Assembly: GCF_965641715.1 (NCBI RefSeq)
Contig: NZ_OZ282453.1
Reading direction: 5' to 3' (one strand)
Length of the DNA stretch: 64,000 nucleotides
From: Escherichia coli
GTDB lineage: Bacteria > Pseudomonadota > Gammaproteobacteria > Enterobacterales > Enterobacteriaceae
Positions within the stretch are counted from its first letter, which is position 1, and the number at the start of each line of letters is the position of its first letter. The notes below the pieces were generated by a model. The model was given only the letters and a program-made list of their open reading frames with translations, was not told the origin of the DNA and did no database searches. Of this stretch, positions 28,487 through 42,508 are shown one piece after another. Made by a program: the position numbers and the translations under genes.

Positions 28487-28496
28487 GGAGCAAACT

Positions 28497-28991
28497 ATGA
28501 ACATTGTCGATCAACAAACTTTTCGCGATGCGATGTCCTGCATGGGTGCGGCGGTCAATATCATCACCACGGACGGTCCAGCCGGGCGCGCCGGGTTCAC
28601 CGCCAGCGCCGTCTGCAGCGTGACCGACACGCCTCCCACATTACTGGTGTGCCTGAATCGTGGGGCTTCCGTCTGGCCGGTATTCAATGAAAATCGAACG
28701 CTGTGTGTAAATACACTTAGCGCCGGGCAGGAGCCGCTTTCAAACCTTTTTGGCGGCAAAACGCCCATGGAACACCGCTTTGCCGCCGCCCGCTGGCAGA
28801 CGGGTGTGACCGGATGCCCGCAACTGGAAGAGGCGCTGGTTTCGTTTGACTGCCGTATCAGCCAGGTGGTGAGCATCGGCACCCACGACATTCTGTTTTG
28901 CGCCATCGAAGCGATTCATCGTCACGCCACACCCTACGGGCTGGTGTGGTTCGATCGCAGTTATCACGCGCTGATGCGCCCTGCTTGTTAA
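28497..28991 (+). CDS. rutF: RutF, flavin reductase
   Basis: 164 aa from [10 protein letters not shown]. Confidence 0.94.
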
Positions 28992-29011
28992 CCTCCTTAA
29001 GGAGACAGCTG

Positions 29012-30340
29012 ATGGCAATGTTCGGTCTTCCTCACTGGCAGTTAAAATCGACCTCTACAGAGAGCGGCGTGGTCGCGCCGGATGAACGATTGCCGTTTGC
29101 TCAGACGGCAATAATGGGCGTTCAACACGCGGTGGCGATGTTTGGCGCGACGGTGTTAATGCCGATTCTGATGGGGCTGGATCCCAATCTTTCCATTTTA
29201 ATGTCGGGGATCGGCACGTTACTGTTTTTCTTTATTACCGGCGGGCGCGTTCCCAGTTATCTCGGTTCCAGCGCGGCTTTTGTTGGTGTGGTGATTGCTG
29301 CAACGGGCTTTAACGGCCAGGGGATTAACCCAAATATCAGCATCGCGCTGGGCGGGATTATCGCCTGTGGGCTGGTTTATACCGTCATTGGCCTGGTGGT
29401 GGTGAAAATCGGCACGCGCTGGATTGAACGGCTAATGCCGCCGGTGGTGACGGGTGCGGTGGTGATGGCGATTGGCCTGAACTTAGCGCCTATCGCGGTA
29501 AAAAGTGTATCGGCTTCAGGCTTTGATAGCTGGATGGCGGTAATGACGGTGCTGTGTATTGGGCTGGTGGCGGTGTTTACCCGTGGCATGATCCAGCGGT
29601 TATTGATTCTTGTAGGATTAATTGTCGCCTGTCTGCTGTATGGCGTGATGACCAACGTTTTAGGGCTGGGAAAAGCCGTCGATTTTACTCTCGTCAGCCA
29701 TGCTGCCTGGTTCGGTCTGCCACATTTTTCCACTCCTGCTTTTAATGGTCAGGCAATGATGCTGATTGCGCCCGTGGCGGTGATTCTGGTGGCGGAAAAC
29801 TTAGGTCATCTCAAGGCGGTCGCCGGGATGACCGGACGCAATATGGACCCGTATATGGGGCGAGCATTCGTAGGCGATGGTCTGGCAACGATGCTTTCTG
29901 GTTCTGTCGGTGGCAGCGGCGTAACCACCTACGCCGAGAATATCGGTGTAATGGCCGTGACAAAAGTCTACTCGACGCTGGTGTTTGTCGCTGCTGCCGT
30001 CATCGCCATGCTGTTGGGCTTTTCACCGAAATTTGGCGCGCTGATTCATACCATTCCGGCCGCGGTGATTGGTGGTGCATCAATTGTTGTGTTCGGGCTG
30101 ATTGCCGTCGCAGGCGCAAGGATATGGGTACAAAACCGTGTCGATTTAAGCCAGAACGGTAATTTGATTATGGTCGCAGTAACCTTAGTGCTGGGCGCGG
30201 GTGATTTTGCTCTCACGCTGGGCGGTTTTACGTTGGGAGGAATCGGTACAGCAACCTTTGGCGCGATTTTACTCAATGCGTTATTAAGCAGAAGGTTGGT
30301 TGACGTTCCACCGCCAGAAGTTGTTCATCAGGAGCCATAA
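29012..30340 (+). CDS. rutG: RutG, pyrimidine (NCS2 family) permease
   Basis: 442 aa from MAMFGLPHWQ. SD AAGGAG upstream. Confidence 0.94.
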   Translation: MAMFGLPHWQLKSTSTESGVVAPDERLPFAQTAIMGVQHAVAMFGATVLMPILMGLDPNLSILMSGIGTLLFFFITGGRVPSYLGSSAAFVGVVIAATGFNGQGINPNISIALGGIIACGLVYTVIGLVVVKIGTRWIERLMPPVVTGAVVMAIGLNLAPIAVKSVSASGFDSWMAVMTVLCIGLVAVFTRGMIQRLLILVGLIVACLLYGVMTNVLGLGKAVDFTLVSHAAWFGLPHFSTPAFNGQAMMLIAPVAVILVAENLGHLKAVAGMTGRNMDPYMGRAFVGDGLATMLSGSVGGSGVTTYAENIGVMAVTKVYSTLVFVAAAVIAMLLGFSPKFGALIHTIPAAVIGGASIVVFGLIAVAGARIWVQNRVDLSQNGNLIMVAVTLVLGAGDFALTLGGFTLGGIGTATFGAILLNALLSRRLVDVPPPEVVHQEP

Positions 30341-30347
30341 ACAGAAA

Positions 30348-30380
30348 ACCGCCGGGATTACCGGCGGTGATGACTTTTTG
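30348..30380 (+). terminator. intrinsic terminator after rutG
   Basis: ACCGCCGG-gatta-CCGGCGGT 8-bp stem followed by gatgacttttt. Confidence 0.75.
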
Positions 30381-30422
30381 ACGAGCTTAAGAAAAAAATG
30401 CATTCGTCATTGATTAGCCCGG

Positions 30423-30596
30423 CTAGTTGTCGCTTTTGCCGTGACTGCTCTTGCCACCTTTTTTACCTGCTTCAGATGCGCGCTGCGGGTCATTCTTGAA
30501 ATTACCCCCGCTGTGCTGTCCACCTTTTTTACCTGCTTCTGATGCTCTTTCGCGGTCTTCTGCAAAATTGCCGGAACCGCCTCGATGGTTTGCCAT
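30423..30596 (-). CDS. ymdF: YmdF, KGG-repeat stress-induced small protein
   Basis: 57 aa from MANHRGGSGNF. Repeated ASEAGKKGG. Matches YmdF. Confidence 0.9.
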   Translation of the reverse strand: MANHRGGSGNFAEDRERASEAGKKGGQHSGGNFKNDPQRASEAGKKGGKSSHGKSDN

Positions 30597-30963
30597 TACT
30601 GACCTCCGTCTGGGTATAGACATCATATTGCATAGAATTAACGCGGCGTATGGCGGCTGCCATATTTTCGCTACGTGGGACTAAGCTTAGTGAACTGACG
30701 CGGGCAGACCCGCGTTTGGTAATATCCTGCAACAGCTTCTTAGCGAGAATAGATATCATCTCCAATAATTATCTATAAGCCGCTCTTATGATTAAAAAAA
30801 CGCGATGAGATAAAAATGTGTCATTTTGCGACAAAATTGCGTGCTTGTGAAAGTTGTTATAAATCAAATAAGTGGTTGTGAAATTTGCACTCTGAAAAGG
30901 ACGTCTTATCTTTAAATAAGTGGTAGCGAATCGCTACGGAATAGAGATAACACGAGGAGTGGT

Positions 30964-31005
30964 TAGAAATGGCTAAAGTTCTGGTGCTTTTACATAGCTA
31001 AACAC
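30964..31005. other. attL of the wrbA island (proposed crossover GT at 30984-30985)
   Basis: The host-to-island transition is located by comparison with the attR junction. GTGCTTT is shared at 30984-30990 and 42533-42539. Confidence 0.7.
30969..31001 (+). pseudogene. wrbA: orphaned native 5' end of wrbA (MAKVLVLLHS*), severed by island insertion
   Basis: ATGGCTAAAGTTCTGGTGCTTT equals the remembered native wrbA start (MAKVLVLYYS...). The sequence diverges after 30990 and hits TAA at 30999-31001. Confidence 0.85.
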
Positions 31006-31329
31006 GTACATTCAACTACCTGTTAATTACAGGACATAAACAGGTTAGTACCTATTCAATTTAAAGGCATTTCCCCAAGTATCTAAGCAATTCTACACAG
31101 ATTCTATGCAGTATCGGTATAGTCCCTTTTTATCATAACTTATTGAAATATATAAAGAATCTGTGAAGTATCTTTTCAGGGTAAACTGTATCGTGTTAGT
31201 CGTCCCTCTCCAGACACTACATATAGTGCTATATACAGGGTTATATAGCGATGTATAGATGCTTGGTCACCATACGTTACAGTTGCAAGAGATAACAATC
31301 AGCTATGTGAAAGTTAGGAAGTGATGGTT

Positions 31330-31367
31330 ATAGTTGATTCGGTTAGTTCTAGGAATCAACCTCATAG
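31330..31367 (+). repeat. hairpin unit U1 (ATAGTTGATTC...CTCATAG family)
   Basis: Stem GTTGATTC (31333-31340) / GAATCAAC (31353-31360), 12-nt loop, then CTCATAG. Confidence 0.7.
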
Positions 31368-31934
31368 TTACCTTGTCAAATCTTCGTAGTTCCTCTTAAA
31401 AAATCACTTACAGACACCTTAATATCTATACAGATTTCATGTAGAACACGATTAGTGCGTAAAAAAGCTATTATGTTAAAAACGCACTGTATACGTATCA
31501 GTACTGATTTATAAGGGTTTTGTGTATTGGCTGATAAGAGGCTATACAGCACCTTGAGAGCATGTCTTGTAAGTCATTGATACATAAGGTCACAGAAGTT
31601 TGTAGCTGTTACAGAGAAAACTGGATAGGACTTCACAGGACTATAAAATGTTACAGCAATTGATAGGTGAAATCTTCTTGATAGATGCTGTGAAGTGTGA
31701 TGAAGGTTTCTTGAGGTGGAGTTAACAGATGCTATGAAGAAAGTCAATAGATATTTTAAAATTCTGCAAAGGGGGCCACATAGCTGGTGTGACGGGTACT
31801 TAGCAGGTATAGACCTGTGATAGATATTTTCGAAGATTCGGGGAAGATGAGATTCAAAGAGGACTAGTCATTTTTTATAAAAATTTTCAGAGTCTGAAAA
31901 GTTACTGCACAGATTTTGCACAATCCTACCAAGC

Positions 31935-31969
31935 CTCATAGTTGATTCGATTAGAAGCTAATCTCATAG
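31935..31969 (+). repeat. hairpin unit U2
   Basis: CTCATAG-TTGATTC, then stem GATTAG / CTAATC with loop AAG, then (C)TCATAG. Confidence 0.7.
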
Positions 31970-31972
31970 AAA

Positions 31973-32085
31973 GCTCTGTAGCGAGTTTTAACCCCATTTT
32001 TAGGGGTAACCTGTAGGGATGTACCACCCACCTTAAAATAAAGGGGTAAAATCGCTTAGAATGCGTTACAGAGCGTCTGAGAAGC
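31973..32085. repeat. inverted-repeat arm Y (partner 35643-35755)
   Basis: The reverse complement aligns without gaps to 35643-35755. 81 of 113 positions are identical by hand count. Confidence 0.75.
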
Positions 32086-32596
32086 CATATTCACAGATTT
32101 TACTAAAACCTCAGACTTCTAAGTGGTCTTTTTAACAGGAGGGTTCTTTCTCATGTATCACCCTCTCTTCCCGCCAAGTAAGCTACACAGACCTAGAGAA
32201 TATGCCTTCACAGCATCTATATCAGGTCAGATTTAGAGGTCTTGATAGAATCTTCAAAGGTACTTGACAGATAACTATGAAGTTGTTAGGAAGGGGTGTT
32301 TAACGGGGGAAGAGATACGATATAACCCGAAGGGGAGAGTATCATCTTAACAGTGATTGTAAGAGTAAAACTGAAAAGATACTTAACAGAACTACCAAGA
32401 GGGAGCGATAAGACCAGAGGTAGTGACCTGTTAAACAGTTCGTTTCAAAGCTCTTAAGAGTCTGTTAAGTAAGGTCATGTGAACAATCATATCATTTTGT
32501 CAATGCTTTTGTCTTTGACCTAAATCAATAAAATGTATCGTTTGATGTGCTTTTAAACAAAATAGTTAAAAATCTTTTTAGAGGGGCGCTTCGCTT

Positions 32597-33265
32597 GTGT
32601 CACATCCAATAATCCATATCGGTCGTTATCATGGTGGTTCTGATGACTGGCGTACACCGTATCGTCTATTTCATAACCTGCATCGTGAGTATAGCTTCAG
32701 TCTAGATGGCGCTGCAACTGAGCATGACGCATTGTTGCCACGGTTCACCGATGATATAAACCGTCAATCATGGGTTGGTGAACGGGTCTTCGTTAACCCG
32801 CCGTTTAGCATGGCTGAACAGTTCCTCGCAAAAGCCCCTGAAGCTGATGTGTGTGTATGTCTGGTTCCGCACAGGTCAAAGACAACTTACTGGCTTCGGT
32901 GTGTATATACAAACCCCTTCCTGCATGAGATTCGAACATTACACCGAGCGGTTAAATACCTTCCACCAGCAGGAAAGAGAGGTGTTGTAGCGCGTTCACC
33001 ATTTGCAAGCTGTGTTTTGATATACAGGAACACACCCCGTAAACCGAAGGTTGAAATTACCCAGACAATCTATTGTGGCGACACAATGCTTTTACTTGCC
33101 GTGGTTAATAGGGGTGGTTTACGTGGAAGACCTCATATACACGATGCACAGACGCTTGACAGGTTGATTAAAATGCATGACCAAGGGCAATCCGTCAAGA
33201 GTATCGCAGAATCGCTAAGAATGCCTCTAAGCACCACTTACAGGATTGTTCAAAGGTTGAGCTAA
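32597..33265 (+). CDS. phage Dam-family N6-adenine DNA methyltransferase fused to a C-terminal resolvase-type HTH
   Basis: GTG start with GAGGGG 10 nt upstream. DWRTP...FSLDGAA and VFVNPPFS (motif IV) resemble the phage T1/Stx-phage Dam family. The C-terminus GRPHIHDAQTLDRLIKMHDQGQSVKSIAESLRMPLSTTYRIV resembles the Hin/resolvase HTH. Confidence 0.75.
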   Translation: MSHPIIHIGRYHGGSDDWRTPYRLFHNLHREYSFSLDGAATEHDALLPRFTDDINRQSWVGERVFVNPPFSMAEQFLAKAPEADVCVCLVPHRSKTTYWLRCVYTNPFLHEIRTLHRAVKYLPPAGKRGVVARSPFASCVLIYRNTPRKPKVEITQTIYCGDTMLLLAVVNRGGLRGRPHIHDAQTLDRLIKMHDQGQSVKSIAESLRMPLSTTYRIVQRLS

Positions 33266-33266
33266 A

Positions 33267-33296
33267 ATTCTCATATAGAGCACTGATTATGAGAAT
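33267..33296 (+). terminator. 9-bp perfect hairpin directly after the methyltransferase stop
   Basis: ATTCTCATA (33267-33275) / TATGAGAAT (33288-33296), 12-nt loop. No clear T-tract, so its function is uncertain. Confidence 0.35.
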
Positions 33297-33474
33297 GTTA
33301 AAGAGGCGATTTCCCCTTTCTGGGGTTATTCGCTTTTTACTGGAAGGGTTATTTTACAGAGGTTTTTCAAACCCCCTCAATAATAAAAAACGAGCAACAA
33401 ACGAAGAGCGAGAAATAAAATATTGAGACTGGTGAACGGGGTCTGTAAAGATTGTTTAAGAAGTCGGTTTAGGG

Positions 33475-33518
33475 ATTGGTAGATGATTCGGATGAAGCAT
33501 CCTCATAACAATACCAAT
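33475..33518 (+). repeat. hairpin unit U3 (nested stems)
   Basis: Outer stem ATTGGTA / TACCAAT. TGATTCG. Inner stem GGATG-AAG-CATCC, then TCATAA. Confidence 0.65.
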
Positions 33519-33574
33519 TAGAAGGTGGCTCTCCCTTTCTGGGGATATCGCCTTGTATCTTAGTGAGTCCAGGA

Positions 33575-33751
33575 AGTTCTCTGTGAAGGGACTTGTCAGT
33601 CCTTTATATTGGCTAATTACAACTTATTGAAAAATAAGCATTTTTAGAAATCACTGTTAAGGTTACAGAGTTCTCTGTGAAGAGACTCGTCAGCTCTCTA
33701 TATTGGCTAATTACAACTCATTGAAAAATAAGCATTTTTAGAAATTGCTGT
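33575..33751 (+). repeat. two direct 83-bp repeats with 94-bp period
   Basis: 33575-33657 against 33669-33751: 75/83 identical by hand count. Each copy contains CTGTGAAG...CTTGTCAG/CTCGTCAG and the hairpin CTTATT-gaaa-AATAAG (copy A; copy B reads CTCATT). Confidence 0.85.
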
Positions 33752-33871
33752 CAGAGAGGTGAGTACTTGATAGATACAGCTTTCCGGTTCTGTCAAGATA
33801 TTTTTTAATAGATAGCACAAAATGCTAAAGATACCCCTATACCATCACGTACAGGGGGTTTTGAAGGGAGT

Positions 33872-34060
33872 TTAACGGGGTTCTGTGTGGTTATCTGTTC
33901 TGGTCCTGTCCTTGAGGTCAAATGACCATTCACGACCAAACAATCTGAACACGATAAACACCCGAACGATGAAATAGCGGAGCAGAAGACCTGCAATCAG
34001 CCCAACACCTCCACCAGCCCATACATCAGGTGACCCCAGCTCAGGAGGGAGATTTACCAT
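33872..34060 (-). CDS. possible small membrane protein (62 aa from the internal ATG; 74 aa from the first ATG at 34096)
   Basis: Only minus-strand ORF in the island besides int. This patch is visibly more GC-rich than the surrounding non-coding DNA. AGGAA lies upstream of ATG 34060. TM segment GGGVGLIAGLLLRYFIVRVFIVF followed by a basic tail. Confidence 0.35.
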   Translation of the reverse strand: MVNLPPELGSPDVWAGGGVGLIAGLLLRYFIVRVFIVFRLFGREWSFDLKDRTRTDNHTEPR

Positions 34061-34097
34061 TAAATTTCCTGTGTGCAATGCAATACCATGTGACATA

Positions 34098-34153
34098 CAT
34101 AGTTGATTCGGTTAGTTGGGCTTGTACCAACCCCTATCGAATAAACCTCATAG
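34098..34153 (+). repeat. hairpin unit U4 (nested stems)
   Basis: CATAGTTGATTCGGTTAGTT is identical to U1 over 19 nt. Outer stem TTGATTCG / CGAATAAA, inner stem GTTGG / CCAAC, ends in CTCATAG. Confidence 0.7.
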
Positions 34154-34222
34154 CCACGCTTCATATTTCCCCCTCTCTCATAAACCATTATACCACAAAT
34201 GTTACGAAATTGTTAAAAATAC

Positions 34223-34251
34223 TTGACATTAGTCTTTGAAAATGCTAGTAT
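34223..34251 (+). promoter_or_regulatory. island promoter P1 (sigma70-type)
   Basis: TTGACA-17 nt-TAGTAT, preceded by TGTTAAAAAT and followed by TGTATATA. It is a near-copy of P2. A GTTAA-N7-TTAAC palindrome follows at 34261-34277. Confidence 0.65.
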
Positions 34252-34299
34252 TGTATATAAGTTAACAGAGAATTAACAATTATAAGGACTAGCTTATGA

Positions 34300-34857
34300 A
34301 TGAACGACAGAGAATTTAGAGCGATGCTTCAGGCATCGAGACAACGTAACAGATACAACTCCTACAGCTACACAGACACCCCCACCAGCTACGAACTACC
34401 CAAGCTCACCAGAGCAGAACGCAAAGGCCTTGATGAATTAATTCGTAGCATTACGCCACGAGATAGATTTATGCCAACCAGAAAGAGCACGAAGAACACT
34501 ATTAAAAATTATCTGGCTAACTTTGACAGCTACGAACAATTACCAAGTAAGCTTGATGATGTAATTATCGGATTCTGTAGAAGTGAAGGTCACCCGAAAT
34601 ACAACAAAAAACTATTTTATCTTCTAAAGAATCTTGACGAAATTAACTCAGCCACCGTGACAAATCATCTTCAGCGTCAAGCAACCAGACTTAGCCATGA
34701 ATTACCAAGCGATAAATATTGCGCTTTGCTTGCTGTAATGTGCGCAAAGTTAATTGGTGTTGTTGAGCATCATATTGCCGTTGGAAATATTGAGCCAATG
34801 GAAAACGAGCAACCAGATTTCGAGTTTGACCCGTATTTAGTTACAGAGGAATTTTAA
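34300..34857 (+). CDS. hypothetical protein, 185 aa
   Basis: AAGGA upstream. First gene after P1. No family recognised. Confidence 0.65.
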   Translation: MNDREFRAMLQASRQRNRYNSYSYTDTPTSYELPKLTRAERKGLDELIRSITPRDRFMPTRKSTKNTIKNYLANFDSYEQLPSKLDDVIIGFCRSEGHPKYNKKLFYLLKNLDEINSATVTNHLQRQATRLSHELPSDKYCALLAVMCAKLIGVVEHHIAVGNIEPMENEQPDFEFDPYLVTEEF

Positions 34858-35136
34858 ATGAAGAAACACACTTTGACCCGTATTTCAGAAGAAGCCTTTC
34901 ACGAGCTTACCCGAATTAAACAGACAACTAACCTCCCTCATCAAACTGTTATGCAGCTTGCAATTGCTAAAGAGGTTACTGAGTCGGATTTACTGAAATA
35001 TCCAGTCTCTAAAGGTCGTAAGCACATCCGAATTACTCAGGACGCTTTAGATACTTTGAAGGCACTTAACAACTTTAAAATTGATATCGCCCGACTATTG
35101 AGTATTAAGATTCACAAGTTAGCAATGGGGGTTTAA
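34858..35136 (+). CDS. hypothetical protein, 92 aa (possible ribbon-helix-helix DNA binder)
   Basis: ATG abuts the upstream TAA. The N-terminal KKHTLTRISEEAFHEL pattern looks RHH-like (weak). Confidence 0.55.
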   Translation: MKKHTLTRISEEAFHELTRIKQTTNLPHQTVMQLAIAKEVTESDLLKYPVSKGRKHIRITQDALDTLKALNNFKIDIARLLSIKIHKLAMGV

Positions 35137-35351
35137 TGCTATGCGTTACCTTTGAATACCACACGGATAAAATGATTCGCTACATCTCCGACCTCCTGAT
35201 TGAAGGAAACGGATTCGGTGACATCCATAACTCAAAAGATATTTTCATTAAAGCCATTGGCCCAAATGAAGTACTGAAAACAGCAGTTAAACCGGAATGG
35301 TTTGAGCGTCACAAGATTGAATTAGGTTATTGGGGTGAGGAGGTTTTATGA
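35136..35351 (+). CDS. hypothetical protein, 71 aa
   Basis: TAATG overlap with the upstream gene. Confidence 0.55.
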   Translation: MLCVTFEYHTDKMIRYISDLLIEGNGFGDIHNSKDIFIKAIGPNEVLKTAVKPEWFERHKIELGYWGEEVL

Positions 35352-35635
35352 AACCTTGGCATGAAGATGTTAGACGATATTTTACAGAACACCTTATCTA
35401 TGATGAATCCAGTGATTCCCTGTGCTGGTCTGATGGAGAGTCAGTCACGATAAACACCGACGACTACGGCAACAAAACATTTAATATAGGCCGATATACT
35501 TTCTACGTGAAATATGTTGTCTGGTTCCTTTATCATGGCTATCAATCCAACAAGCAAATTATCCATCGAAATGGTAACAGAGCCGATACCAGACCAAAAA
35601 ATCTTATGCAAGTCCGAGACTTTAAGAGAAATTAG
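35348..35635 (+). CDS. small HNH-type endonuclease-like protein, 95 aa
   Basis: ATGA overlap with the upstream gene. YVVWFLYHGY...IHRNGNRADTRPKNL resembles the HNH_3 motif (H-x-N-G-N..DNR..NL). Confidence 0.65.
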   Translation: MKPWHEDVRRYFTEHLIYDESSDSLCWSDGESVTINTDDYGNKTFNIGRYTFYVKYVVWFLYHGYQSNKQIIHRNGNRADTRPKNLMQVRDFKRN

Positions 35636-35642
35636 AAAAACA

Positions 35643-35755
35643 GCTTCTCAGACGCTCTCAATCGCATTCTAACGCAAAAAACTATCTTATTTTAGGGTGG
35701 GTAATACCACTGTACAGGCTACCCCTGAAAAAGACTGTTTAGCTCGTTACAGAGC
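35643..35755. repeat. inverted-repeat arm X (partner 31973-32085)
   Basis: See arm Y. Lies in the 156-bp gap between the HNH gene and the next ORF. Confidence 0.75.
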
Positions 35756-35791
35756 GATTGAGGAGGTCTGGTAAAAAGGAGATTTTAAGAA

Positions 35792-36121
35792 ATGAGAGAA
35801 TTAAACTTCCCACTACAGATTTTTATTGATACCGACACCGCCATGATGATTCAGGCTTTCACTGATGTAGGTGTTAGCATTGACTTTGATAAGTTGTTAG
35901 AGTTAATGACTGATAATGCGGAAAGCATCTCTGACTTTATTCAGTCGGTGGAGTTTAACGAGCCTCGAATGATGCTACCAATTAAAGACAGCAACATGAA
36001 AAGATTGGTTATCGAGCAAACGAACAAATTCAGCGTTAGCCCTGAAAAATATCTCAAGGCGGCTATAGCAATTTTGTACGCTGACAATATTTTGGTGACG
36101 GATTCGAAGGTGGTGCATTAA
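35792..36121 (+). CDS. hypothetical acidic protein, 109 aa
   Basis: AAGGAG lies 8 nt upstream of the ATG. Confidence 0.6.
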   Translation: MRELNFPLQIFIDTDTAMMIQAFTDVGVSIDFDKLLELMTDNAESISDFIQSVEFNEPRMMLPIKDSNMKRLVIEQTNKFSVSPEKYLKAAIAILYADNILVTDSKVVH

Positions 36122-36186
36122 TGGAATTGGTGATTATCTGTTTTGTATTGATTGGTATGATTGCAGGTGCATCTATTAAAGTATAA
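36121..36186 (+). CDS. 21-aa hydrophobic peptide MELVIICFVLIGMIAGASIKV
   Basis: TAATG overlap with the upstream stop (translational coupling). Single TM-like stretch. Below the ORF-track size cutoff. Confidence 0.4.
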   Translation: MELVIICFVLIGMIAGASIKV

Positions 36187-36211
36187 ATGTTACCAATCTG
36201 TTAAAAATCTG

Positions 36212-36240
36212 TTGACAAATAACCTTGAGCATGACATAAT
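36212..36240 (+). promoter_or_regulatory. island promoter P2 (sigma70-type)
   Basis: TTGACA-17 nt-CATAAT, preceded by TGTTAAAAAT and followed by TGTATATA. Confidence 0.65.
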
Positions 36241-36246
36241 TGTATA

Positions 36247-36503
36247 TATATGAGGATAGTCTTCTATCCGAAGTCTATAGGGAGAGCAATTCTCCTTGAA
36301 TTAAAATATTAATCATCTCTACATCAATGATAACTATATTCTGAGTTGGTGAGGTATGTTCTATACCGAACATTCTGAAAGGTGCAATGCTTTTCGTCAT
36401 GGCCTTTCAGTTTAGTCTGAGAGGCTATCTCAAAAAGTGCTTAATCATTCATTCATTGAATCCTTTACAGCTTTGCCCTAATCATGAGTTAGGGCGTTTC
36501 TTT
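36247..36503 (+). ncRNA. putative ~255-nt leader/short RNA from P2 to the first terminator
   Basis: No ORF of 60 aa or more. Hairpins GGATAG-tctt-CTATCC, GGAGA-gcaat-TCTCC and CTGAAAGG (36375-36382) / CCTTTCAG (36403-36410). Ends at an intrinsic terminator. Confidence 0.3.
36475..36503 (+). terminator. intrinsic terminator in the P2 leader
   Basis: GCCCTAA-tcatgag-TTAGGGC followed by GTTTCTTT. Confidence 0.7.
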
Positions 36504-36573
36504 AAGAGTTTTAAGCAGAGCTTTTAAAGAAAGTTTTTCCTGAAACTTCGTTAACGTTATAAAGCAAACCTTC

Positions 36574-36610
36574 AAAGCCCTTCACAGATTCAATGTTTAG
36601 GGCTTTTCTT
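36574..36610 (+). terminator. second hairpin/terminator in the P2 leader
   Basis: AAAGCCCT / AGGGCTTT 8-bp stem. The 17-nt loop contains CTTCACAGATT. Followed by TCTT. Confidence 0.45.
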
Positions 36611-36707
36611 AATAGAGCATCTTTAATAAATCGTTAAGTCATCTTCTAAGTGTATTGGCGTTGAAGGTGCTCTGTTAAGAAATAAACCACACTTAGAGGA
36701 AGTTATA

Positions 36708-37418
36708 ATGACAAACGATTTATATATTAACGGTAAAAAGGTTGATAGCTTCGGTGACTGGTCGCCACAGACTGAACATCCAGCTATCACTATTCAGCGC
36801 AAAGAACACGATGAAAGAATTGCACTTGAGCAAGAAATCCGAATGTCACCAAAGGTAATTTCCTTTGTGGCTCCTGAGCCTCAAGATATGCCGGATATTT
36901 GCAAAACTGAAGCATTGCTTGAGCTTGAAAAGAAATTTTACCCAGCTTTAAAAGCACAGCGTCTTAAACTAGATGACGCTTACAGTAAAGTTACCCTGAT
37001 GCAATCAGCTATTGAGCCATCAGAATTTGAGATTCAGGATGAATTGTCACAGAAACCATTTGTCTATTACCAATATGAAGACAATGATGGTTTTGGTACT
37101 TTTCCTGAGAATATCCCAGACGTGATTAATAATCCGATGGATGGATATCGAATTGTGAAGATGGTTAAGGCATCAAGAGGTGCTGGTCAGTTTATTTACA
37201 TGACTAATAAGAGCGATGAAGAACTCGCTGAACTTGCTAGACAGAACATCTTGGCATCACGTAACAAGCAGCTTGATAATGTTAAGTTGTATCTCTCAAG
37301 AGAGCTTCAGGCTATGAAAGACCTTGTGAAAGAATATGAAGATGCTAAGAAGATTGCTATGCAAGCCGATATTGAGCAGTTAGTGAAGATTTCTAGCAAA
37401 TATGCAAAGGCTATTTAA
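36708..37418 (+). CDS. hypothetical acidic/coiled-coil protein, 236 aa
   Basis: AGAGGAAG upstream. It sits where tail assembly chaperones sit in siphophage gene order, but I saw no sequence motif supporting that role. Confidence 0.6.
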   Translation: MTNDLYINGKKVDSFGDWSPQTEHPAITIQRKEHDERIALEQEIRMSPKVISFVAPEPQDMPDICKTEALLELEKKFYPALKAQRLKLDDAYSKVTLMQSAIEPSEFEIQDELSQKPFVYYQYEDNDGFGTFPENIPDVINNPMDGYRIVKMVKASRGAGQFIYMTNKSDEELAELARQNILASRNKQLDNVKLYLSRELQAMKDLVKEYEDAKKIAMQADIEQLVKISSKYAKAI

Positions 37419-37437
37419 TTATGATGTGAGGTGAAGA

Positions 37438-37653
37438 ATGATTGATTTAACTGAACGCTATGAAGTTATTAAGTCTGTTTGTGAGAACTTAAAGCTTCAG
37501 ACTAAACCAAAGCTACGAATTAAAAATCAGCATCAAGTTATCACCTCACACAAACCAAAGGTTAGAAGGATTCCTTCATGGTGTATTGACCGTGTTCCTG
37601 CTGATGCTCAATTAATTGGTGAGTCTGGTTCTTACACTTATATCCTTCATTAA
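37438..37653 (+). CDS. hypothetical basic protein, 71 aa
   Basis: GAGGTGAAG upstream. Confidence 0.5.
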   Translation: MIDLTERYEVIKSVCENLKLQTKPKLRIKNQHQVITSHKPKVRRIPSWCIDRVPADAQLIGESGSYTYILH

Positions 37654-37660
37654 AAATTAC

Positions 37661-37704
37661 AAAGGGGAGAGATTAGCCTTAATTGGTTAGTCTTTCCCTT
37701 TTTC
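37661..37704 (+). terminator. imperfect hairpin + T-run upstream of the tape-measure gene
   Basis: aaaggggagaga ... tctttccctttttcg, with a bulged stem. Confidence 0.4.
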
Positions 37705-37734
37705 GTATATGAACACTTAAGAGGTGAAACATGA

Positions 37735-39864
37735 ATGGCACAGTTTAAAGTTGATAGTTTTATCGTTGAGCTAGGCTTCAGCGAGAACGTTATTAAGGGC
37801 TTGCAAAGAGTTGAAAAGGCAGCTTTGCAGTCAGCACAAAGAATTGAGCGTAATTTGAATAGAGCGTTTAAGGTCGATACCAAGCAACTTGACAGCAATT
37901 TAACGGCTTCTTTGAAGTCAATGGAAGGAAAAATTAATAAGACCTTTGACCGTCTGGAAGCTAGAGCAAAAAATACTAAAGCTTTCCAGTTTACCACCAG
38001 ATTTAATGACACTGTTAATCCTCCAAAACAACCGAGACAGCCACGAATTAGCGGCAACAGAGCAATCACAGCAGCTTACTCAGCGAATATGAGCAAGTTA
38101 AAGGGCTTTGACCCTATTTTGCAGAAATACATCAAATCTCAGTTTTACGGGCTATCTGCTAAAGCTGGGTCAATGGATAACACCAAGTTTAATGAAGCCC
38201 TTGCTAAACTAAATTCAAGTGTAAGAGAAGCAATTGCTAAAGCTAAAGGTCATACATCCACCAGCATTAACGGTGACAGAGCAGCTAATAGTCTTGATAA
38301 CCTGTCTTCAGCGGCGGTTAAAACAGCAGGTGCATTTATCTCAATGCAGGCTGTATTAGCCAGTTATCAGAAGATTATGGAGGTTGGTTTACAGCGTGCA
38401 AGTGCTGAGCGTTCAATTGATTTCGTATTTGATAAAGATGCAGGTCAGGTAAAAGAGTTCACAAAGTCATTAGCTCAAACAACGGGTTTAGATATCGCTG
38501 AACTGCAATCACAGTTTGCTGGTTTCGGTGCTTCAGCTAAAGAGTCTATGGGTATTCAAGGTTCTGAAGAGCTTTTTAGAAATATGATTGGCTATGCTCG
38601 TTTAATGGGTCGAAGTGAAGAAGAGATTAAGCGAGCACTGACAGCATTATCACAGATGGCTGGTAAGGGTCAGGTTATGGCTGAAGAGCTTAAGGGGCAA
38701 CTAGCTGAAGCTGTTCCTGGTATGGTTCAGGTATTCGCTAAAGCAACCGGAAAGAGTGAACAGGAATTATTTGATGCCATGAAGAAGGGGGCTTTAAAAT
38801 CTGCCGATACTCTTCAGAAGGTCACTCAGGAACTGAATAGACAAATCACCGCTAAAGGTGGCTGGAAAGCTATTTCAGAAAGTACACAGGCACAACTAGG
38901 GAACTTGAAAAACTCTTGGAATACCACGCTTGACAGTATTTTCAGAGGTTCTGAAGATGGTTTACAGGACTTCACAAGAAGCTTAACCAATCTTCTAAAC
39001 GCTCTTGGTGGAACTGGTAAAACATTAGGTGAAAGTTTTGGTAGCTTGATGAGCGATATGTCACATGGTATCGATTCATTGACTGATATCTCTTACAGGG
39101 TACGAGGTTTCTTTGATGAGGTGACATTAGCTTACCGTTCACTAAATGACACTCAGAAAAAAATTGTTGATGGTTTATCTGATGGGTTAATTGATGGTTT
39201 GAAAATGCTTGCCGTAGCTGTTACTGCTCAAAAGGCTGCAAATGTAGCTGGAGGCTTGTTAAACCTTGCAAACGCTGTTACTTCATTCGGTGACGCTGTT
39301 AATAAAGCTAAAGCTGGCAAGGCTGGTTCTTCAGGTGGTGCGCTAAGTAAAGTCGGTAGAGTTGTCCTTTATGCTGAGTTGGTAAACTTTGCTCTTGATA
39401 ATTTAAACCCTGAAGCAGCTAAGAATCCGAACTTACATCAATCAGGTATTGGAACAGAGACAAACTTCAACCCTGAATACAAAGGCGATTCTACACCAAA
39501 CCAAATTAATGATGGATGGGCTAAGATTGGTAGTTCTATCGCTGACTGGTTTAATGGTGCGGCTAATAAAATTGCTAACTTCCAAGAGCCAATGAGTAAC
39601 CTTGTTAATAACACACAATCAACTCCACCAGCTATTACAGGTGACATGGTTAATAGCAATGCTCAACTTGCAATGGCTATTAGTGAACTATCACGTAAGG
39701 TTGATGCTTTAACAGCAGAATCTAAGAAGCCCTTGTCACTTAATATCAAAGGTGAAGCAATTGTTAGACCGGATGAACCAGCTTTCTTTACTTTCAATCA
39801 ATCAGCTAATGACCAGTTCACGCAGGATATGCTCTTAAGTTCAAGCTATCCAGAGGAAGAATGA
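37735..39864 (+). CDS. phage tail tape-measure protein, 709 aa
   Basis: GAGGTG lies 8 nt upstream. LSQMAGKGQVMAEELKGQLAEAVPGMVQVFAKATGKSEQELFDAMKKGALKSADTL matches the conserved tape-measure N-terminal domain pattern. Long Ala/Gly/Ser-rich helical protein. Confidence 0.8.
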   Translation: MAQFKVDSFIVELGFSENVIKGLQRVEKAALQSAQRIERNLNRAFKVDTKQLDSNLTASLKSMEGKINKTFDRLEARAKNTKAFQFTTRFNDTVNPPKQPRQPRISGNRAITAAYSANMSKLKGFDPILQKYIKSQFYGLSAKAGSMDNTKFNEALAKLNSSVREAIAKAKGHTSTSINGDRAANSLDNLSSAAVKTAGAFISMQAVLASYQKIMEVGLQRASAERSIDFVFDKDAGQVKEFTKSLAQTTGLDIAELQSQFAGFGASAKESMGIQGSEELFRNMIGYARLMGRSEEEIKRALTALSQMAGKGQVMAEELKGQLAEAVPGMVQVFAKATGKSEQELFDAMKKGALKSADTLQKVTQELNRQITAKGGWKAISESTQAQLGNLKNSWNTTLDSIFRGSEDGLQDFTRSLTNLLNALGGTGKTLGESFGSLMSDMSHGIDSLTDISYRVRGFFDEVTLAYRSLNDTQKKIVDGLSDGLIDGLKMLAVAVTAQKAANVAGGLLNLANAVTSFGDAVNKAKAGKAGSSGGALSKVGRVVLYAELVNFALDNLNPEAAKNPNLHQSGIGTETNFNPEYKGDSTPNQINDGWAKIGSSIADWFNGAANKIANFQEPMSNLVNNTQSTPPAITGDMVNSNAQLAMAISELSRKVDALTAESKKPLSLNIKGEAIVRPDEPAFFTFNQSANDQFTQDMLLSSSYPEEE

Positions 39865-40020
39865 TTTAACGGTGTTCTACGTGAATAAAGCAAAGTTAAT
39901 ACCCACACCAAAAATTATTTTTCACGTAGCTCACGCTTAACAGAGAAAATACATATATATCAAAGGCTTGGTTAAAAATGATTAAAATACACTAAGCCTT
40001 TGAAATCAAAGGAGAATTTA

Positions 40021-40794
40021 ATGATTTTTAGCAATCAAATCCGCTACAGTGGCAAAGATGGCATCTATTTCCACTTAAGAGATAATGTAGATGCCTTCTT
40101 AACCTTATCAGCAACTGAAAACATGGAATTTGACAGTCCTATGCAGGTGACTACACAGAACATGCAATCAGGGCAAACCGTCACAGATAATGTGCAAAGA
40201 GCACCCAGAACAATCACTATTAGTGGTGTCGTTGTAGTTGGCTATGAAGGAAGCTTATTATTAACTCGTCAGGGTCAATTAGTAGAAAACTTCATTGACA
40301 CTCTTGAAAGCTGGAGAGACCAGAAACAAATTATTTCAGTGATTTGTAAAGATGGTATCAAGATTGATGACTCAATTATTACCAACTTTAAAGCCTCTAA
40401 AGATGTTACTATCTCTAACGGTCTTCGTATCCAGCTAACTTTTCAGGAAATTAACTTCAAAGCCATTGTAGGGCAAACTGATGTTTCAGCAGCTACTGGC
40501 AAAACTGCTACCACTAATGATGGTGGTGCTACCAGTAAAAAGAATGCGGGTAACGTGACTACTGAACGCAATAACGCACCTATGTTGATGTGTCAGGAAC
40601 TGTATAGCTACTCAGCATCTGAGCTATCTGATGAAGCGCTAAGGGTCCGTAGCAATTGCTCTAAAAATGTCACGGTGAAAGATGGTGTAAGCACCTTCAC
40701 AGCCTCAGCTAATGAGCAGGCTTCAAAAGTGCTTAAGTCGGGTAATGCTTTACGGAAGTTTAGTGTGAATCCGAATAAGAAGGGCACTTATTGA
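40021..40794 (+). CDS. putative tail-tip/distal-tail-like protein, 257 aa
   Basis: GGAG lies 6 nt upstream of ATG 40021. Sits directly after the TMP. The assignment rests on position only. Confidence 0.45.
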
Positions 40795-40811
40795 TTGGTA
40801 ACAATACCAAT
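40794..40811. terminator. hairpin between the convergent tail gene and int
   Basis: ATTGGTA-acaa-TACCAAT. These are the same arms as the outer stem of unit U3. Confidence 0.45.
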
Positions 40812-40813
40812 TC

Positions 40814-42457
40814 CTAAGCGTCCACCTCTTCCATATCACCAGCAGGATAAATCCTTGTTACTGGTTCACCAAAAATAAGCATATCATCTAGTGACTGCAT
40901 CTCATCGGTTGCTTCTTCAAGCGTTAAGGTGTGGTCATCTTTACCATCAAGAGGGAAACCACGAATCATATTTCCATTGTGAAGATATATATCCACCAGC
41001 TTTTCATTACCAGAAACAACAATCTCTTTCACCAGACGCTTAATGATAATCTGGGCTTCAGTTCTCCCCTCTACAGACTCCATATCAAGACCGCTTAAAT
41101 CCAAGCTTGATACAGATTTTACCCTCGCCTTTTCTCGTGATAACTGAACTATCAGTTCATCTTTTTCTTCCTGCTTAACCCGTAGTGCTTCCTGAATCTG
41201 AGTGATGTTAGGAAGCTGTATCAGCGTCTCAGTAAGTTTTTCAAGTTCACTATCAACGGTGTTTAGTCTGCGTTGTAGCTCATCCAATTTAGCTGTGTCA
41301 GTAGCTTCATCGTGTAGCTGTGATAGTTTGCTGAACAGACGACTACAAAGCTGTGTATCAAGTAACTTTCTGGACACTGTACCGTAGCTACAACGGGACT
41401 CCTTATTACCATTGCAACGGTAAGTACCTTGATAAACGGGTTTACGTATCCCTGTAGGAGTCATTACAAGCCCACACTTACAACGGATAAGCCCCTTCAG
41501 TATGTTCACATATAGCCAGTGTTCACCGCTGGATGTTTTCCCCTTCCCTGTTTCCTCTAACAGTTGCTGTACAGCGTAAAACTTAGAGTCTGTGACAATC
41601 TGAGGATAGAACCCTTCAATTTCTTCACGTAACACTGTTTTACGGTCTTCTGTAGAAATCTTAGCGGGAAGGTAACCTAATACACTTCGTGAAGTCAGGA
41701 TGTGTTTAACGCTTAATGCTGACCAGTTGCCATCCGGTTTCTTAGTCTTGGATATTCTGACCTTACGCTGATTAATGGTCGGGTAACCTTGTTCGTTTAG
41801 CCATTTACAGATAGCAAACATCGACATACCAGAAAGACGCTTGTCATAGATGATATTCACCAGTGACGCTTTATCTTCATCAACGATGTAGTGTGAACCG
41901 TCTTCTGATAGCTCTAACCATCCGGGGGCTTGCTTACCCATAGGCTTCTTAAGTTCTCTTGCAAGCTGTGTTTTATGGTTCCAGACCTGAGCTATACGCT
42001 TTTGCTTAACAAGAGATTCCTGATGTGCTCTCTCAGCTATGATGATGTGCTTAATCAACTTCACAGGGTCTGTTAATGCTGATTTGTCGTAGAGTTCACC
42101 ATCTCCCAGAGTCAGTATAGAGACTCCTTTCCTCAGTATCTGCCTGACATCATCTATAGCTGTGTCGATATCAGCCCTACTGAAGCGGTCAAAGTTCTCT
42201 ACAACAATCAGGGAACCTTCTGGAATAGCCCCAGACATAACATTTTCAAACATACGTCTGAAGTCAGAACCTTGAGCCTTATGTTGCTGGTGAAAACCAG
42301 ATTTACCCTTATCAACGTATCTGTGAGCAGGAAGAAGGTAATAATCGTTTTTGTGCTTAGAGTAGAAAGCATCAATGAGGTTTGTTTGCCGTCTTAAGGA
42401 GTCTCCTGAGTCTTGCTCTTTAGTACTCCACCTGATGTATGTCACTAGCAGCTTCAT
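40814..42457 (-). CDS. large serine recombinase (integrase), 547 aa
   Basis: N-terminal resolvase catalytic domain ([28 protein letters not shown]). Recombinase domain. Cys-rich zinc ribbon (CKCG...YRCNG...C). Coiled-coil. Terminal position 75 bp from attR. Confidence 0.88.
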
Positions 42458-42508
42458 ATCTTCGGACTATGCTTATCTAAGTGGTTCATTGAACAGGAGA
42501 ACAATGAT

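Follow-up and report, generated by a model that had tools for sequence, protein, structure and literature searches.

Several described systems share parts of their layout with the locus analysed here. In the late control region of lambda (PR'-tR'/Q, with the 6S RNA), a near-consensus promoter is followed by a short non-coding RNA, an intrinsic terminator and then the structural genes, and additional downstream terminators imply processive read-through. Our locus shows the same order. Unlike lambda, it has no recognised Q-family protein and, just past the start, no pause-inducing element that can be called conserved, its leader is 460 nt long compared with 194 nt, it has two or three terminators and a probable translational gate, and its carrier is a small island instead of a lambdoid phage. 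The lambda PL-nutL-N leader, which contains an RNase III hairpin, is similar in its promoter, its small conserved leader hairpin, the long double-stranded hairpin directly before the first Shine-Dalgarno (SD) sequence, and the gated genes behind terminators. In our locus, however, the terminators lie within the leader, ahead of the first gene, no boxA (CGCUCUUA-like) is found near the hairpin SL-A, the SL-A loop (pentaloop GCAAU) does not match the boxB GNR(N)A pentaloop, and no N-family protein was recognised on the island.

The put RNAs of HK022 are about 70 nt long, contain two stem-loops and are protein-independent (PMC9378689). An adjacent stem-loop pair is likewise present in our nascent leader ahead of the terminators, but it has no covariance-model similarity to put and its spacing from the promoter is different and variable. 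P4 immunity (CI RNA, terminated PLE leader; Rfam C4, RF01695) is comparable in that a satellite has a constitutive promoter whose non-coding leader terminates early and may act as a stable effector RNA, whereas our locus gave no RF01695 match, and no seqA/seqC-type repeats with complementarity to the RNA were found upstream of the terminators. The V. cholerae PLE, a satellite of the lytic phage ICP1, is likewise small, encodes a large serine recombinase, contains helper-related sequences and is linked to a single virulent myovirus genus. Its sequences and host are unrelated to ours, and our island shares with the phage only the tape-measure gene, the tube-initiator gene and one non-coding segment. 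To our knowledge, satellite-like or interference elements against virulent coliphage have few precedents, the best known being PLE and ICP1 in Vibrio.

The island and its relation to Felixounavirus

The island covers about 11.5 kb (~30992-42537) of the window, the 64,000-nt stretch of E. coli DNA analysed here, and is inserted within wrbA. The features are listed in Table 1. A direct repeat (32118-32141 and 42476-42499) was considered as att sites and dropped, as a truncated wrbA start turned up at 30970. Family searches recognised no capsid, terminase, replication or packaging genes on the island. In gene content it corresponds to a phage satellite, with a serine recombinase and helper-related sequences and without a full virion gene set.

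Table 1. Positions of the promoters, boxes, RNA elements and genes of the island in the window
Feature	Position	Strand	Details
Bas63-like non-coding segment	31750-31905	+	156 bp, ~70% identical to Bas63 71516-71671
58-62-aa membrane protein gene	33872-34060	-	MVNLPPELGSPDVWAGGG...; downstream of Pdiv
Pdiv, divergent promoter	34187-34216	-	TTAACA-18-TATAAT, TGg extended -10, 11/12 match
Paired TGTTA boxes upstream of P1	34200-34215	+	TGTTACGAAATTGTTA
P1	34223-34251	+	TTGACA-17-TAGTAT, 10/12, TG extended -10, then TGTATATA
Second TGTTA box pair	34263-34278	-	just past P1 start
P1 operon	34300-36186	+	six ORFs, then P2
185-aa orphan protein	34300-34857	+	P1 operon
92-aa tandem ribbon-helix-helix protein	34858-35136	+	P1 operon
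71-aa ORF	35136-35351	+	P1 operon
HNH endonuclease	35348-35635	+	P1 operon
109-aa ORF	35792-36121	+	P1 operon
21-aa hydrophobic ORF	36121-36186	+	last of P1 operon
Three TGTTA/TGTTG boxes	36188-36214	+	11-bp spacing; upstream of and overlapping P2 -35
P2	36212-36240	+	TTGACA-17-CATAAT, 11/12, TG extended -10
Optional 29-nt insertion hairpin	36254-36269	+	−7.6 kcal/mol
Universal 5' stem-loop	36280-36296	+	−6.9 kcal/mol
Conserved two-hairpin core SL-A/SL-B	36377-36428	+	~52 nt
SL-A	36377-36395	+	−5.5 kcal/mol; contains 9-mer GUGCAAUGC
SL-B	36399-36428	+	−17.8 kcal/mol; 0/200 shuffles as good
T1, intrinsic terminator	36475-36503	+	stem GCCCUAAU/GUUAGGGC (hairpin 36475-36495, −11.7 kcal/mol), then GUUUCUUU
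T2, terminator-like hairpin	36574-36612	+	AAAGCCCU...AGGGCUUU + UCUUAAU; 17-nt loop
Long hairpin	36606-36681	+	21-bp outer stem, 36606-36626 with 36661-36681
Candidate apical anti-SD sequence	36642-36653	+	UCUUCUAAGUGU, by complementarity
236-aa gene initiation region	36689-36710	+	ACACUUAGAGGA (36689-36700) complementary to hairpin loop; AUG 36708
236-aa gene	36708-37418	+	island-specific; without phage homologue
71-aa gene behind 236-aa gene	37438-37653	+	island-specific; without phage homologue
T3, strong terminator-like hairpin	37658-37704	+	18 bp + UUUUUCG, −26.8 kcal/mol; precedes tape-measure gene
Tape-measure protein	37735-39864	+	PF20155; Felixounavirus-derived
Tube-initiator/Dit-like protein	40000-40794	+	likely start ATG 40022; Felixounavirus-derived
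Large serine recombinase	40814-42457	-	right island end, adjoining rebuilt wrbA start (42510)

Phages of the genus Felixounavirus are used for typing and in phage therapy. Both the tape-measure gene and the tube-initiator gene showed up to 92% nucleotide identity with Felixounavirus and are the only island genes with homologues in Bas63. By their sequence, these tail genes are borrowed from virulent Felix-O1-like phages. The Bas63 counterpart of the non-coding segment sits in a 1.66-kb ORF-less TGTTA-repeat array of the phage. Since tail genes as well as a non-coding stretch have this origin, the helper-phage factor suggested originally has become more credible. Of 5426 complete E. coli genomes, 474 contained a related 3.7-kb stretch, and there are related proteins under the names of Salmonella, Citrobacter, Shigella, E. 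albertii and E. fergusonii. Our literature search, which covered only part of the journals, found nothing on a Felixounavirus satellite or a wrbA island and was uninformative on Felix O1 late transcription.

None of the island ORFs matched an antiterminator family in Pfam, PHROG or NCBIfam, Q and N families included. The 185-aa protein was considered as an antiterminator candidate and set aside, as its AlphaFold model was unusable (pLDDT 45) and it is almost without relatives (just 22 related clusters in a set of 1.8 billion representatives). It gave no sequence match in the PDB; in the same unusable model its N-terminal helix is basic (R4, R7, R14, R16, R18), with R7 and R16 alone conserved. 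The 236-aa protein showed no phage match and no noteworthy PDB match and fell into no family of Pfam, PHROG, NCBIfam or PADLOC; its RefSeq label 'transposase' is unsupported by these family and structure-database searches.

Promoters and TGTTA boxes

A sigma-70 consensus scan of 30000-44000 gave P2 and P1 as the best + strand matches, and both are near-consensus as originally predicted. Promoter-like sites in this stretch (32) were not in excess of those in shuffled sequence (30.9); therefore, the case for the promoters rests on quality and conservation, not on number. The flanks said to be shared were found at both sites, with TGTTAAAAAT upstream of the -35 (gap of 2 nt at P1 and 3 nt at P2) and TGTATATA behind the -10, and the likeness continues for 34 nt further upstream with 79% identity (34187-34220 versus 36175-36208). 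We read P1 and P2 as paralogous cassettes. P1 leads into the small-gene operon as described, and the P2 transcript is predicted from the -10 position to start near 36247.

P2 showed 93-98% identity over 60 nt in most of the 45 distinct related loci (minimum 84%), compared with 77-95% for the less conserved coding sequence behind it. In one of the related loci, L053, the -35, the extended -10 and the upstream boxes of P2 are all retained; the TGTTA/TGTTG boxes are conserved in the related loci and have a diverged form in L053. Conservation above that of the coding sequence, with the elements kept even in L053, argues for a selected function. The stretch just past the -10 varies by lineage (TGTATATA, TTTAATTAT, GGTAATAG): P2 of the window has TATATA and GATAGT where other lineages have TTTAATTAT or GGTAATAG, so a conserved sigma-dependent pause element is not assertable. 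The -35 of Pdiv, which is kept in 22 distinct loci, is the reverse complement of the TGTTAA box upstream of P1. The paired TGTTA pattern occurred five times in 64 kb against 1.1 expected, and four of the five lie at P1 or P2.

Leader RNA and terminators

The original prediction described an ORF-less leader of about 255 nt behind P2. The distance from P2 to T1 is indeed ~257 nt, but the ORF-less run is longer, ~460 nt up to the ATG at 36708. It contains no ORF of at least 60 aa, as stated; the largest on the + strand has 46 aa (36387-36527), and in related loci its frame is interrupted by indels of 1, 2 and 4 nt. The fold of the whole 474-nt leader gave z = −8.6. The hairpins that had been listed were folded again, T1 and T2 included, whereas the 21-bp hairpin had been missed.

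The stems of the 5' stem-loop vary by lineage yet by inspection remain self-complementary. The stem and loop of SL-A are nearly invariant across all lineages amid mosaic neighbouring sequence. SL-B has a 12-bp stem in the window and nine pairs in the consensus structure, two of them with compensatory changes. A covariance model recovered the core in L053 (56 bits) and in a further locus, L009 (85 bits); between the core and the start are 80-135 nt that include variable insertions. The model did not find the core in the Bas63 genome, so the island appears to carry no copied helper RNA element. No Rfam family reached the gathering score in the island, nothing relevant appeared at E up to 10 in 35600-37800, and a blastn search with the leader over 50,697 phage records turned up nothing beyond a 32-nt chance match. 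The leader is a conserved structured RNA without an Rfam family.

One to three hairpin and U-run terminators were found in 44 of the 45 distinct leaders; their sequences were swapped between lineages though their presence is conserved. L053 has the same layout of promoter, terminated RNA and structural genes, though its 236-aa gene is only 64% identical, and its T1 covaries to GCCCUC/GAGGGC followed by a six-U run. The layout of the proposed lambdoid PR'-tR' logic is thus conserved; membership in the Q system was not supported, with no antiterminator match. The T2 hairpin (36574-36606, then UUUUCUU) gave −13.7 kcal/mol, and the 3' halves of T2 and T1 are near-duplicates. The T runs behind the hairpins are confined to the + strand. 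As the U tract of T1 is interrupted and the T2 loop is 17 nt long, both may be leaky, and a factor would then not be required. The hairpin and T-run announced ahead of the tape-measure gene is T3. The scan gave no sigma-70-like promoter between T2 and 36708 in the window, where a separate promoter had been named as the finding that would speak against the prediction, and none was seen by eye in that stretch of the two other sequence classes. A T4-type late-promoter motif behind T2 was dropped because it was found in one sequence class only. A boxA-like UGCUCUGUUAA at 36667-36677 was also dropped; it lies in a stem, past T1 and T2, and is lost in classes V2 and V3.

The stretch from T2 to the ATG falls into three sequence classes, which preserve base pairing and have no common linear motif. 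In the alignment of the long hairpin 98.9% of the cells were paired and nine pairs had changed on both sides, which none of 500 shuffles matched; slid controls were only 40-60% paired. Its G-U pairs assign the structure to the + strand RNA. The duplex between loop and SD gave −26.6 kcal/mol in the window (0/1000 shuffles) and −19.9 kcal/mol (3/1000) and −14.4 kcal/mol (26/1000) in the other two diverged classes, among which the SD sequences differ. The leader therefore probably carries a second, translational gate, a covarying hairpin with a loop complementary to the SD. RNase III could process the long hairpin constitutively, leaving this gate permanently open.

Discussion

Our preferred reading, to which we give a little less than an even chance, is that the leader is off by default, gated at transcription and translation, and needs a trans factor for expression of the tail-gene module (236-aa gene, 71-aa gene, tape measure and tube initiator). 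A default-off leader that needs a trans factor makes lambda-Q logic plausible. P2 would be a strong sigma-70 promoter making a non-coding regulatory leader for this module. In the resting cell, polymerase from P2, or reading in from the P1 operon, would halt at T1/T2 and give a stable RNA of ~200-260 nt that begins with a hairpin and ends in a terminator. Escaping transcripts would be shut to ribosomes by pairing of the 21-bp hairpin apex with the first-gene SD, and T3 would be a further block ahead of the tape-measure gene. With these blocks in place, expression would need a trans-acting trigger that confers terminator resistance. It would most likely be recruited, in analogy to nut, qut or put, at the invariant SL-A/SL-B core, as all terminators are further downstream, and it may come from the P1 operon or from an infecting Felixounavirus. 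The sequences show promoter quality and conservation, covarying RNA structures, the conserved occurrence of terminators, the complementarity of loop and SD, and the phage link; the start site, termination itself, that a factor exists and which one it is, and what the core does are inferred.

The P2-to-T1 RNA may instead be functional itself, as a stable trans-acting or immunity RNA like that of P4, where the leader is processed to CI RNA, with the tail genes expressed from whatever reads through; we consider this rather unlikely. The form of the RNA is that of a stable sRNA, and the near-invariance of SL-A amid mosaic neighbours is in keeping with it. The candidate target is the divergent membrane-protein mRNA. 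The SL-A 9-mer GTGCAATGC has just two + strand copies in 64 kb, and the second, at 34073, lies within the leader of this mRNA, which gives the two RNAs a complementary stretch (GCAUUGCAC in the membrane-protein 5' leader). This copy is conserved in 23 of 23 loci examined despite differing flanks. A type I toxin-antitoxin system would combine a small hydrophobic protein with an sRNA of extended complementarity to its mRNA; the 58-62-aa membrane protein and the 21-aa hydrophobic ORF may be of the protein kind. However, beyond these 9 nt only scattered pairs form, the SL-A stem takes up most of the 9-mer, and motif and membrane-protein start are separated by anything between 12 and ~120 nt. The duplex energy (−19.9 kcal/mol, rank 838 of 12792 windows) is ordinary, and antisense pairing was therefore kept as a lead only. 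No Rfam C4/CI or other family matched, and the covarying hairpin and anti-SD past the terminators are left unexplained by this reading. It is improbable that T1 and T2 are terminators or insulators of the P1 operon, with the P2 RNA a by-product and the tail genes transcribed by leakage or from a phage-specific non-sigma-70 promoter past T2. The scan of 30000-44000 did find no terminator between the P1 operon and P2, and Bas63 has a strong terminator (10777-10806) inside a co-directional late cluster, followed by a further 13 kb of late genes, so leaky terminators in tail modules would be normal for this phage group. Such a role does not account for the conservation of P2 above the coding sequence and in L053, nor for a T2-to-ATG stretch in which three classes preserve pairing and share no promoter-like motif.

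Two adjacent conserved stem-loops between the promoter and all terminators could also form a put-like, protein-independent antiterminator; P2 transcripts would then always pass T1-T3, and control would lie with the TGTTA boxes and the ribbon-helix-helix protein only. We hold this to be very improbable, as the core model (R1) on HK022 24000-31000 with filters off, a test in one direction, gave at most 7.2 bits, the distance of the core from the start is variable, and the extra translational gate suggests off as the default. Packaging or origin sequences of satellites are often found in ORF-less stretches, and the island has no recognisable genes for either function, which would suit a DNA-level element. 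That the region acts as DNA and not as RNA is nevertheless scarcely credible, because the compensatory changes include G-U pairs workable only in + strand RNA, the T runs keep to that strand, and the phage-like DNA segment is elsewhere on the island (31750-31905).

Returning to the default-off leader, a wider and unlikely extension is that the island represents an as yet undescribed satellite of virulent Felix-O1-like phages, or an element that interferes with them, with the twin promoters and the leader as an infection sensor. The tandem ribbon-helix-helix protein would repress P1 and P2 through the paired TGTTA boxes, and an incoming, replicating phage genome, whose ORF-less array repeats these boxes dozens of times, would titrate the repressor; alternatively, a phage box-binding protein may act on P1 and P2 directly. 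An island or phage factor at the SL-A/SL-B core would then take polymerase through T1-T3, and the variant tape measure and tube initiator would redirect or poison helper tail assembly.

If it works as proposed, the leader would control a widespread family of islands as a compact switch in which promoter, conserved RNA core, terminators and an SD-occluding hairpin are combined. It would then explain the silence, in uninfected cells, of tail-assembly genes with the potential for interference.

Promoters P1 and P2

A consensus scan of 30000-44000 ranked P2 and P1 as the top + strand sites, which bears out the twin promoters of the original prediction, with the sequence as described. The total of promoter-like sites in this interval was not above that of shuffles, so the promoter argument rests on match quality and conservation and not on counts. 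P2 was 93-98% identical over 60 nt in most related loci (minimum 84%), the first 190 nt of the gene after it showed 77-95% identity, and P1 was likewise kept in 22 distinct versions. The likeness of the two promoters reached 34 nt further upstream (79% identity) and also ran into TGTATATA 3′ of the −10; by sequence, P1 and P2 are paralogous cassettes.

Two small hydrophobic ORFs lie close to these sites, one coding for the membrane protein behind the divergent promoter and one for a 21-aa peptide just upstream of P2. In every locus inspected, both were conserved in kind.

Features of the island and flanking DNA
Feature	Position	Strand	Details
Truncated wrbA start	30970		ATGGCTAAAGTTCTGGTGCTT
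Rebuilt wrbA start	42510		ATGAGTGTTAAGGCAAGAATACTAGTGCTT
Island	~30992-42537		~11.5 kb; GTGCTTT at both junctions
ORF-less left region	31000-32590		1.6 kb
63-nt inverted repeat	32056-32118, 35610-35672		73% complementary
Direct repeat	32064-32084, 35745-35765		CGTTACAGAGCG..TGAG.AG
222-aa ORF	32597-33265
Tandem 83-nt repeat	33575-33657, 33669-33751		90% identical, 94-bp period
Membrane protein ORF (58-62 aa)	33872-34060	-	MVNLPPELGSPDVWAGGG...
9-mer sites	34073-34081, 36382-36390	+	GTGCAATGC
Upstream likeness of P1 and P2	34187-34220, 36175-36208
Divergent promoter	34216..34187	-	TGgTATAAT; −35 is the TGTTAA box upstream of P1; aims at membrane protein gene
Paired boxes at P1	34200, 34263	+, -
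Paired boxes at P2	36188, 36199
P1	34223-34251	+	TTGACA-17-TAGTAT, 10/12, TG
92-aa protein gene	34858-35136		P1 operon gene 2
21-aa peptide ORF	36121-36186	+	MELVIICFVLIGMIAGASIKV; overlaps stop codon of 109-aa ORF
P2	36212-36240	+	TTGACA-17-CATAAT, 11/12, TG ahead of −10
SL-A	36377-36395	+	GAAAGGUGCAAUGCUUUUC
46-aa ORF	36387-36527
SL-B	36399-36428	+	12-bp stem
T1	36475-36503	+
T2	36574-36612	+
T1/T2 near-duplicate 3′ halves	36488-36510, 36599-36620		TTAGGGC-TTTCTT-AA-AGAG
Long hairpin	36606-36681	+	21-bp outer stem
T3	37658-37704		−26.8 kcal/mol
Bas63-like DNA	37726-37869, 39836-39879, 40036-40554, 40765-40806		77%, 86%, 92%, 88% (phage side L057 11470-14515)
Rfam matches outside island	10670-10863, 47721-47799, 58482-58904		Ysr251 (190.9 bits), naRNA4 (82.5), cspA thermoregulator (161.3); all consistent with an Escherichia-like chromosome

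Extent and conserved structure of the leader RNA

The leader, which runs from P2 to the ATG of the 236-aa gene, proved ORF-less as claimed, but it is ~460 nt long and not 255 nt. It held no conserved ORF; the 46-aa ORF was broken by 1-, 2- and 4-nt indels in relatives. The 474-nt leader fold gave z = −8.6. All hairpins listed earlier folded as stated, the strongest being T3 ahead of the tape-measure gene, but the long hairpin had been missed.

The 3.7-kb region was present in 474 of 5426 complete E. coli genomes at 80-95% identity. Related loci were gathered via the 236-aa protein from viral, genome and metagenome contigs; the leaders of 47 loci, 352-551 nt long, came in 45 distinct versions. 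These leaders are mosaic: hairpin modules of 29 nt and 28 nt were present or absent between loci, there was more than one version of the terminator segment, and the final 100 nt fell into two sequence classes, V1 and V2. A third class, V3, was found in the diverged locus L053, whose 236-aa homologue is only 64% identical.

The 5′ stem-loop begins three or four bases past the predicted start. By inspection, its stems varied by lineage yet stayed self-complementary (GGGAGAG/CUCUCC, GGAAGA/UUUUCC, GAGAGA/UCUCUC, and GGGGA/UUCCC in L053). In the conserved core, the stem and loop of SL-A were nearly invariant, and its 9-mer GUGCAAUGC was retained in all leaders examined, including L053. The consensus structure of SL-B has nine pairs, two with compensatory changes and two more with G-C/G-U exchanges. 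In a simple scan, 44 of the 45 leaders carried one to three units of a hairpin and U run; the sole exception, L036, has an alternative GGGCU terminator version that lies outside the scan criteria. In L053 a single, better terminator is present (GCCCUC...GAGGGC, then six U). T1 and T2 nearly duplicate each other in their 3′ halves, and locus L044 has a single fused terminator without everything between T1 and T2.

A covariance model of SL-A through T1 scored 159 bits in the window, 85 bits in the related locus L009 and 56 bits in L053, and found nothing in phage Bas63 or the HK022 early region. No Rfam family matched the leader. We regard the leader as a new regulatory RNA, both conserved and structured. 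As a predicted terminator-gated leader it belongs to a familiar kind, to which it would add a lock on translation.

Long hairpin and the Shine-Dalgarno region

Covariation of the long hairpin was measured on a 19-sequence alignment across V1, V2 and V3. Pairing was kept in 98.9% of cells, and 9 of the 21 pairs were altered on both sides; none of 500 shuffles matched these values, and sliding the partners by 1-3 columns left just 40-60% pairing. The G-U pairs among them indicate that the structure belongs to the + strand RNA.

V1, V2 and V3 differ in their Shine-Dalgarno sequences, yet in each of them the apical part of this hairpin was complementary to the Shine-Dalgarno region of the 236-aa gene. 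The AUG and codons 3-6 of this gene are hidden too in the alternative fold of the window sequence.

Predicted duplexes between the hairpin apex and the Shine-Dalgarno (SD) region
Class	Apical part	SD region	Duplex (kcal/mol)	Loop shuffles reaching it
V1	UCUUCUAAGUGU	ACACUUAGAGGA	−26.6	0/1000
V2	UCUCUUCUAAGU	ACUUAGAAGAGG	−19.9	3/1000
V3	UUCACCUC	GAGGUGAA	−14.4	26/1000

Candidate regulators

Five copies of the paired-box pattern TGTTA-N5-7-TGTTR were present in the 64-kb window, where 1.1 would be expected, and four of the five were at P1 or P2. Bas63 50001-87100 held 16 against 1.2 expected, all within an ORF-less array. The 92-aa protein was modelled as two tandem ribbon-helix-helix units (pLDDT 91.6), and its best structural neighbours were the DNA-binding TraY, DndE and AvtR, with weak scores (E ~0.02-0.05, TM-score ~0.5-0.6). 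It is a candidate TGTTA-box binder. The 185-aa protein, first of the P1 genes, is an orphan with an unusable structure model. The P1 operon has no terminator of its own.

As the original prediction had stated, no antiterminator family was found among the island ORFs. The TGCAnTGCA-like 9-mer had just two + strand sites in 64 kb, one in SL-A and the other in the untranslated 5′ part of the divergent membrane-protein mRNA, and both were kept in all related loci. The two sites may bind the same protein, or they may mark where the two RNAs make contact.

The island and its link to Felixounavirus

The island sits inside the 5′ end of wrbA and contributes the new start of this gene; the shared junction sequence sets the length of the element. 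A large serine recombinase lies at its right end. The best phage relatives of the tape-measure protein were in Felixounavirus (Felix-O1-like virulent myoviruses), with ~31% identity over residues 1-478 and a length of 742 aa in the phage against 709 aa in the island. The next island gene matched, by 75% in protein and 92% in DNA over 519 bp, the gene that directly follows the tape measure in Felixounavirus; its homologue in the Felixounavirus phage Bas63, gp18, serves the baseplate hub as tube initiator (PMC12609058). DNA identity to Bas63 was patchy, covering both ends of the tape-measure gene (77%, 86%) and the tube-initiator gene; the tape-measure middle had just ~31% identity in protein. 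No other island protein had a Bas63 homologue.

Window 31750-31905 was ~70% identical to Bas63 71516-71671 (156 bp), the centre of the phage TGTTA array. This array is a 1.66-kb ORF-less region (70492-72155; 20492-22155 in L058, the second part of the Bas63 record) between convergent transcription units, dense in [CT]TGTTA[AG] repeats at 10-11-bp spacing. The left region of the island is ORF-less as well and may be an origin or packaging-site mimic. In Bas63 64572-70492 (L058 14572-20492), each early gene follows an intergenic cassette of ~90 nt, nearly the same in every copy, in which TTTACA-17-TAAAGT surrounds a GGGGCTTA...TAAGCCCC hairpin. Other Bas63 promoters read TTAAAAAAGtTGTTGACAA, a close likeness to P2 (GTTAAAAAGCTGTTGACAAA in most relatives, GTTAAAAATCTGTTGACAAA in the window).

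The 222-aa ORF, with its HTH-like tail, showed weak similarity to phage N6-adenine methyltransferases. At this place the E. coli relative L001 carries a small serine recombinase together with a methylase fragment, which shows that the island varies in its left part. Upstream of the membrane-protein gene, the tandem 83-nt repeat occupies DNA without ORFs. The 63-nt inverted and the direct repeats are shared by the non-coding DNA at the left of the island and the spacer that separates the HNH and 109-aa genes. Some related loci, L002 and L012 among them, carry the same element as an insertion that parts the GTGCAATGC motif from the membrane-protein gene. This element may be a small mobile repeat, or else a site for recombination.

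We found no paper on such an element in the literature. The island family is linked to Felixounavirus and is apparently undescribed.

Proposed mechanism and comparison with known systems

Our tentative reading, possible and somewhat short of probable, is that the leader is off by default, with one gate at transcription and a second at translation. Transcripts from P2, together with read-through from P1, would stop at T1/T2, the ribosome-binding site would be occluded on those that escape, and T3 would guard the tape-measure gene. The gate would be opened by a factor that acts in trans on RNA polymerase during elongation, and the invariant SL-A/SL-B core would be the likely site at which this factor loads. 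A functional leader sRNA, as in P4 immunity, is rather unlikely: the second + strand copy of the SL-A 9-mer (34073), in the divergent membrane-protein mRNA leader, was conserved in 23 of 23 loci despite different flanks, but the predicted pairing of SL-A with this mRNA was short and energetically ordinary.

It is improbable that T1 and T2 are insulating or leaky and that the tail genes are served by another promoter. Still less probable is that the leader core acts as a put-like, protein-free antiterminator RNA. A DNA-level role for the ORF-less region is the least probable of all; the covariation that includes G-U pairs argues against it.

The original interpretation was borne out in part. 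In its logic the leader does resemble the lambdoid PR′-tR′/Q late control that had been proposed, but on the features covered it could be assigned to none of the Q, N/nut, HK022 put and Rfam C4 families, and no Q protein was recognised on the island. It is also like the lambda PL-nutL-N leader, in which a small conserved hairpin is joined by a long one that borders directly on the Shine-Dalgarno site; no N protein and no boxA/boxB were found. The leader logic also resembles the lambdoid arrangement of HK022 put (PMC9378689). Nothing similar to the leader was found in the HK022 early region, nor did Rfam C4 match it.

For the island as a whole, the nearest analogue would be the Vibrio cholerae PLE, which is a satellite of a lytic myovirus and has a serine recombinase. 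The leader and the island matter mainly through this island context and through how directly the switch can be tested.
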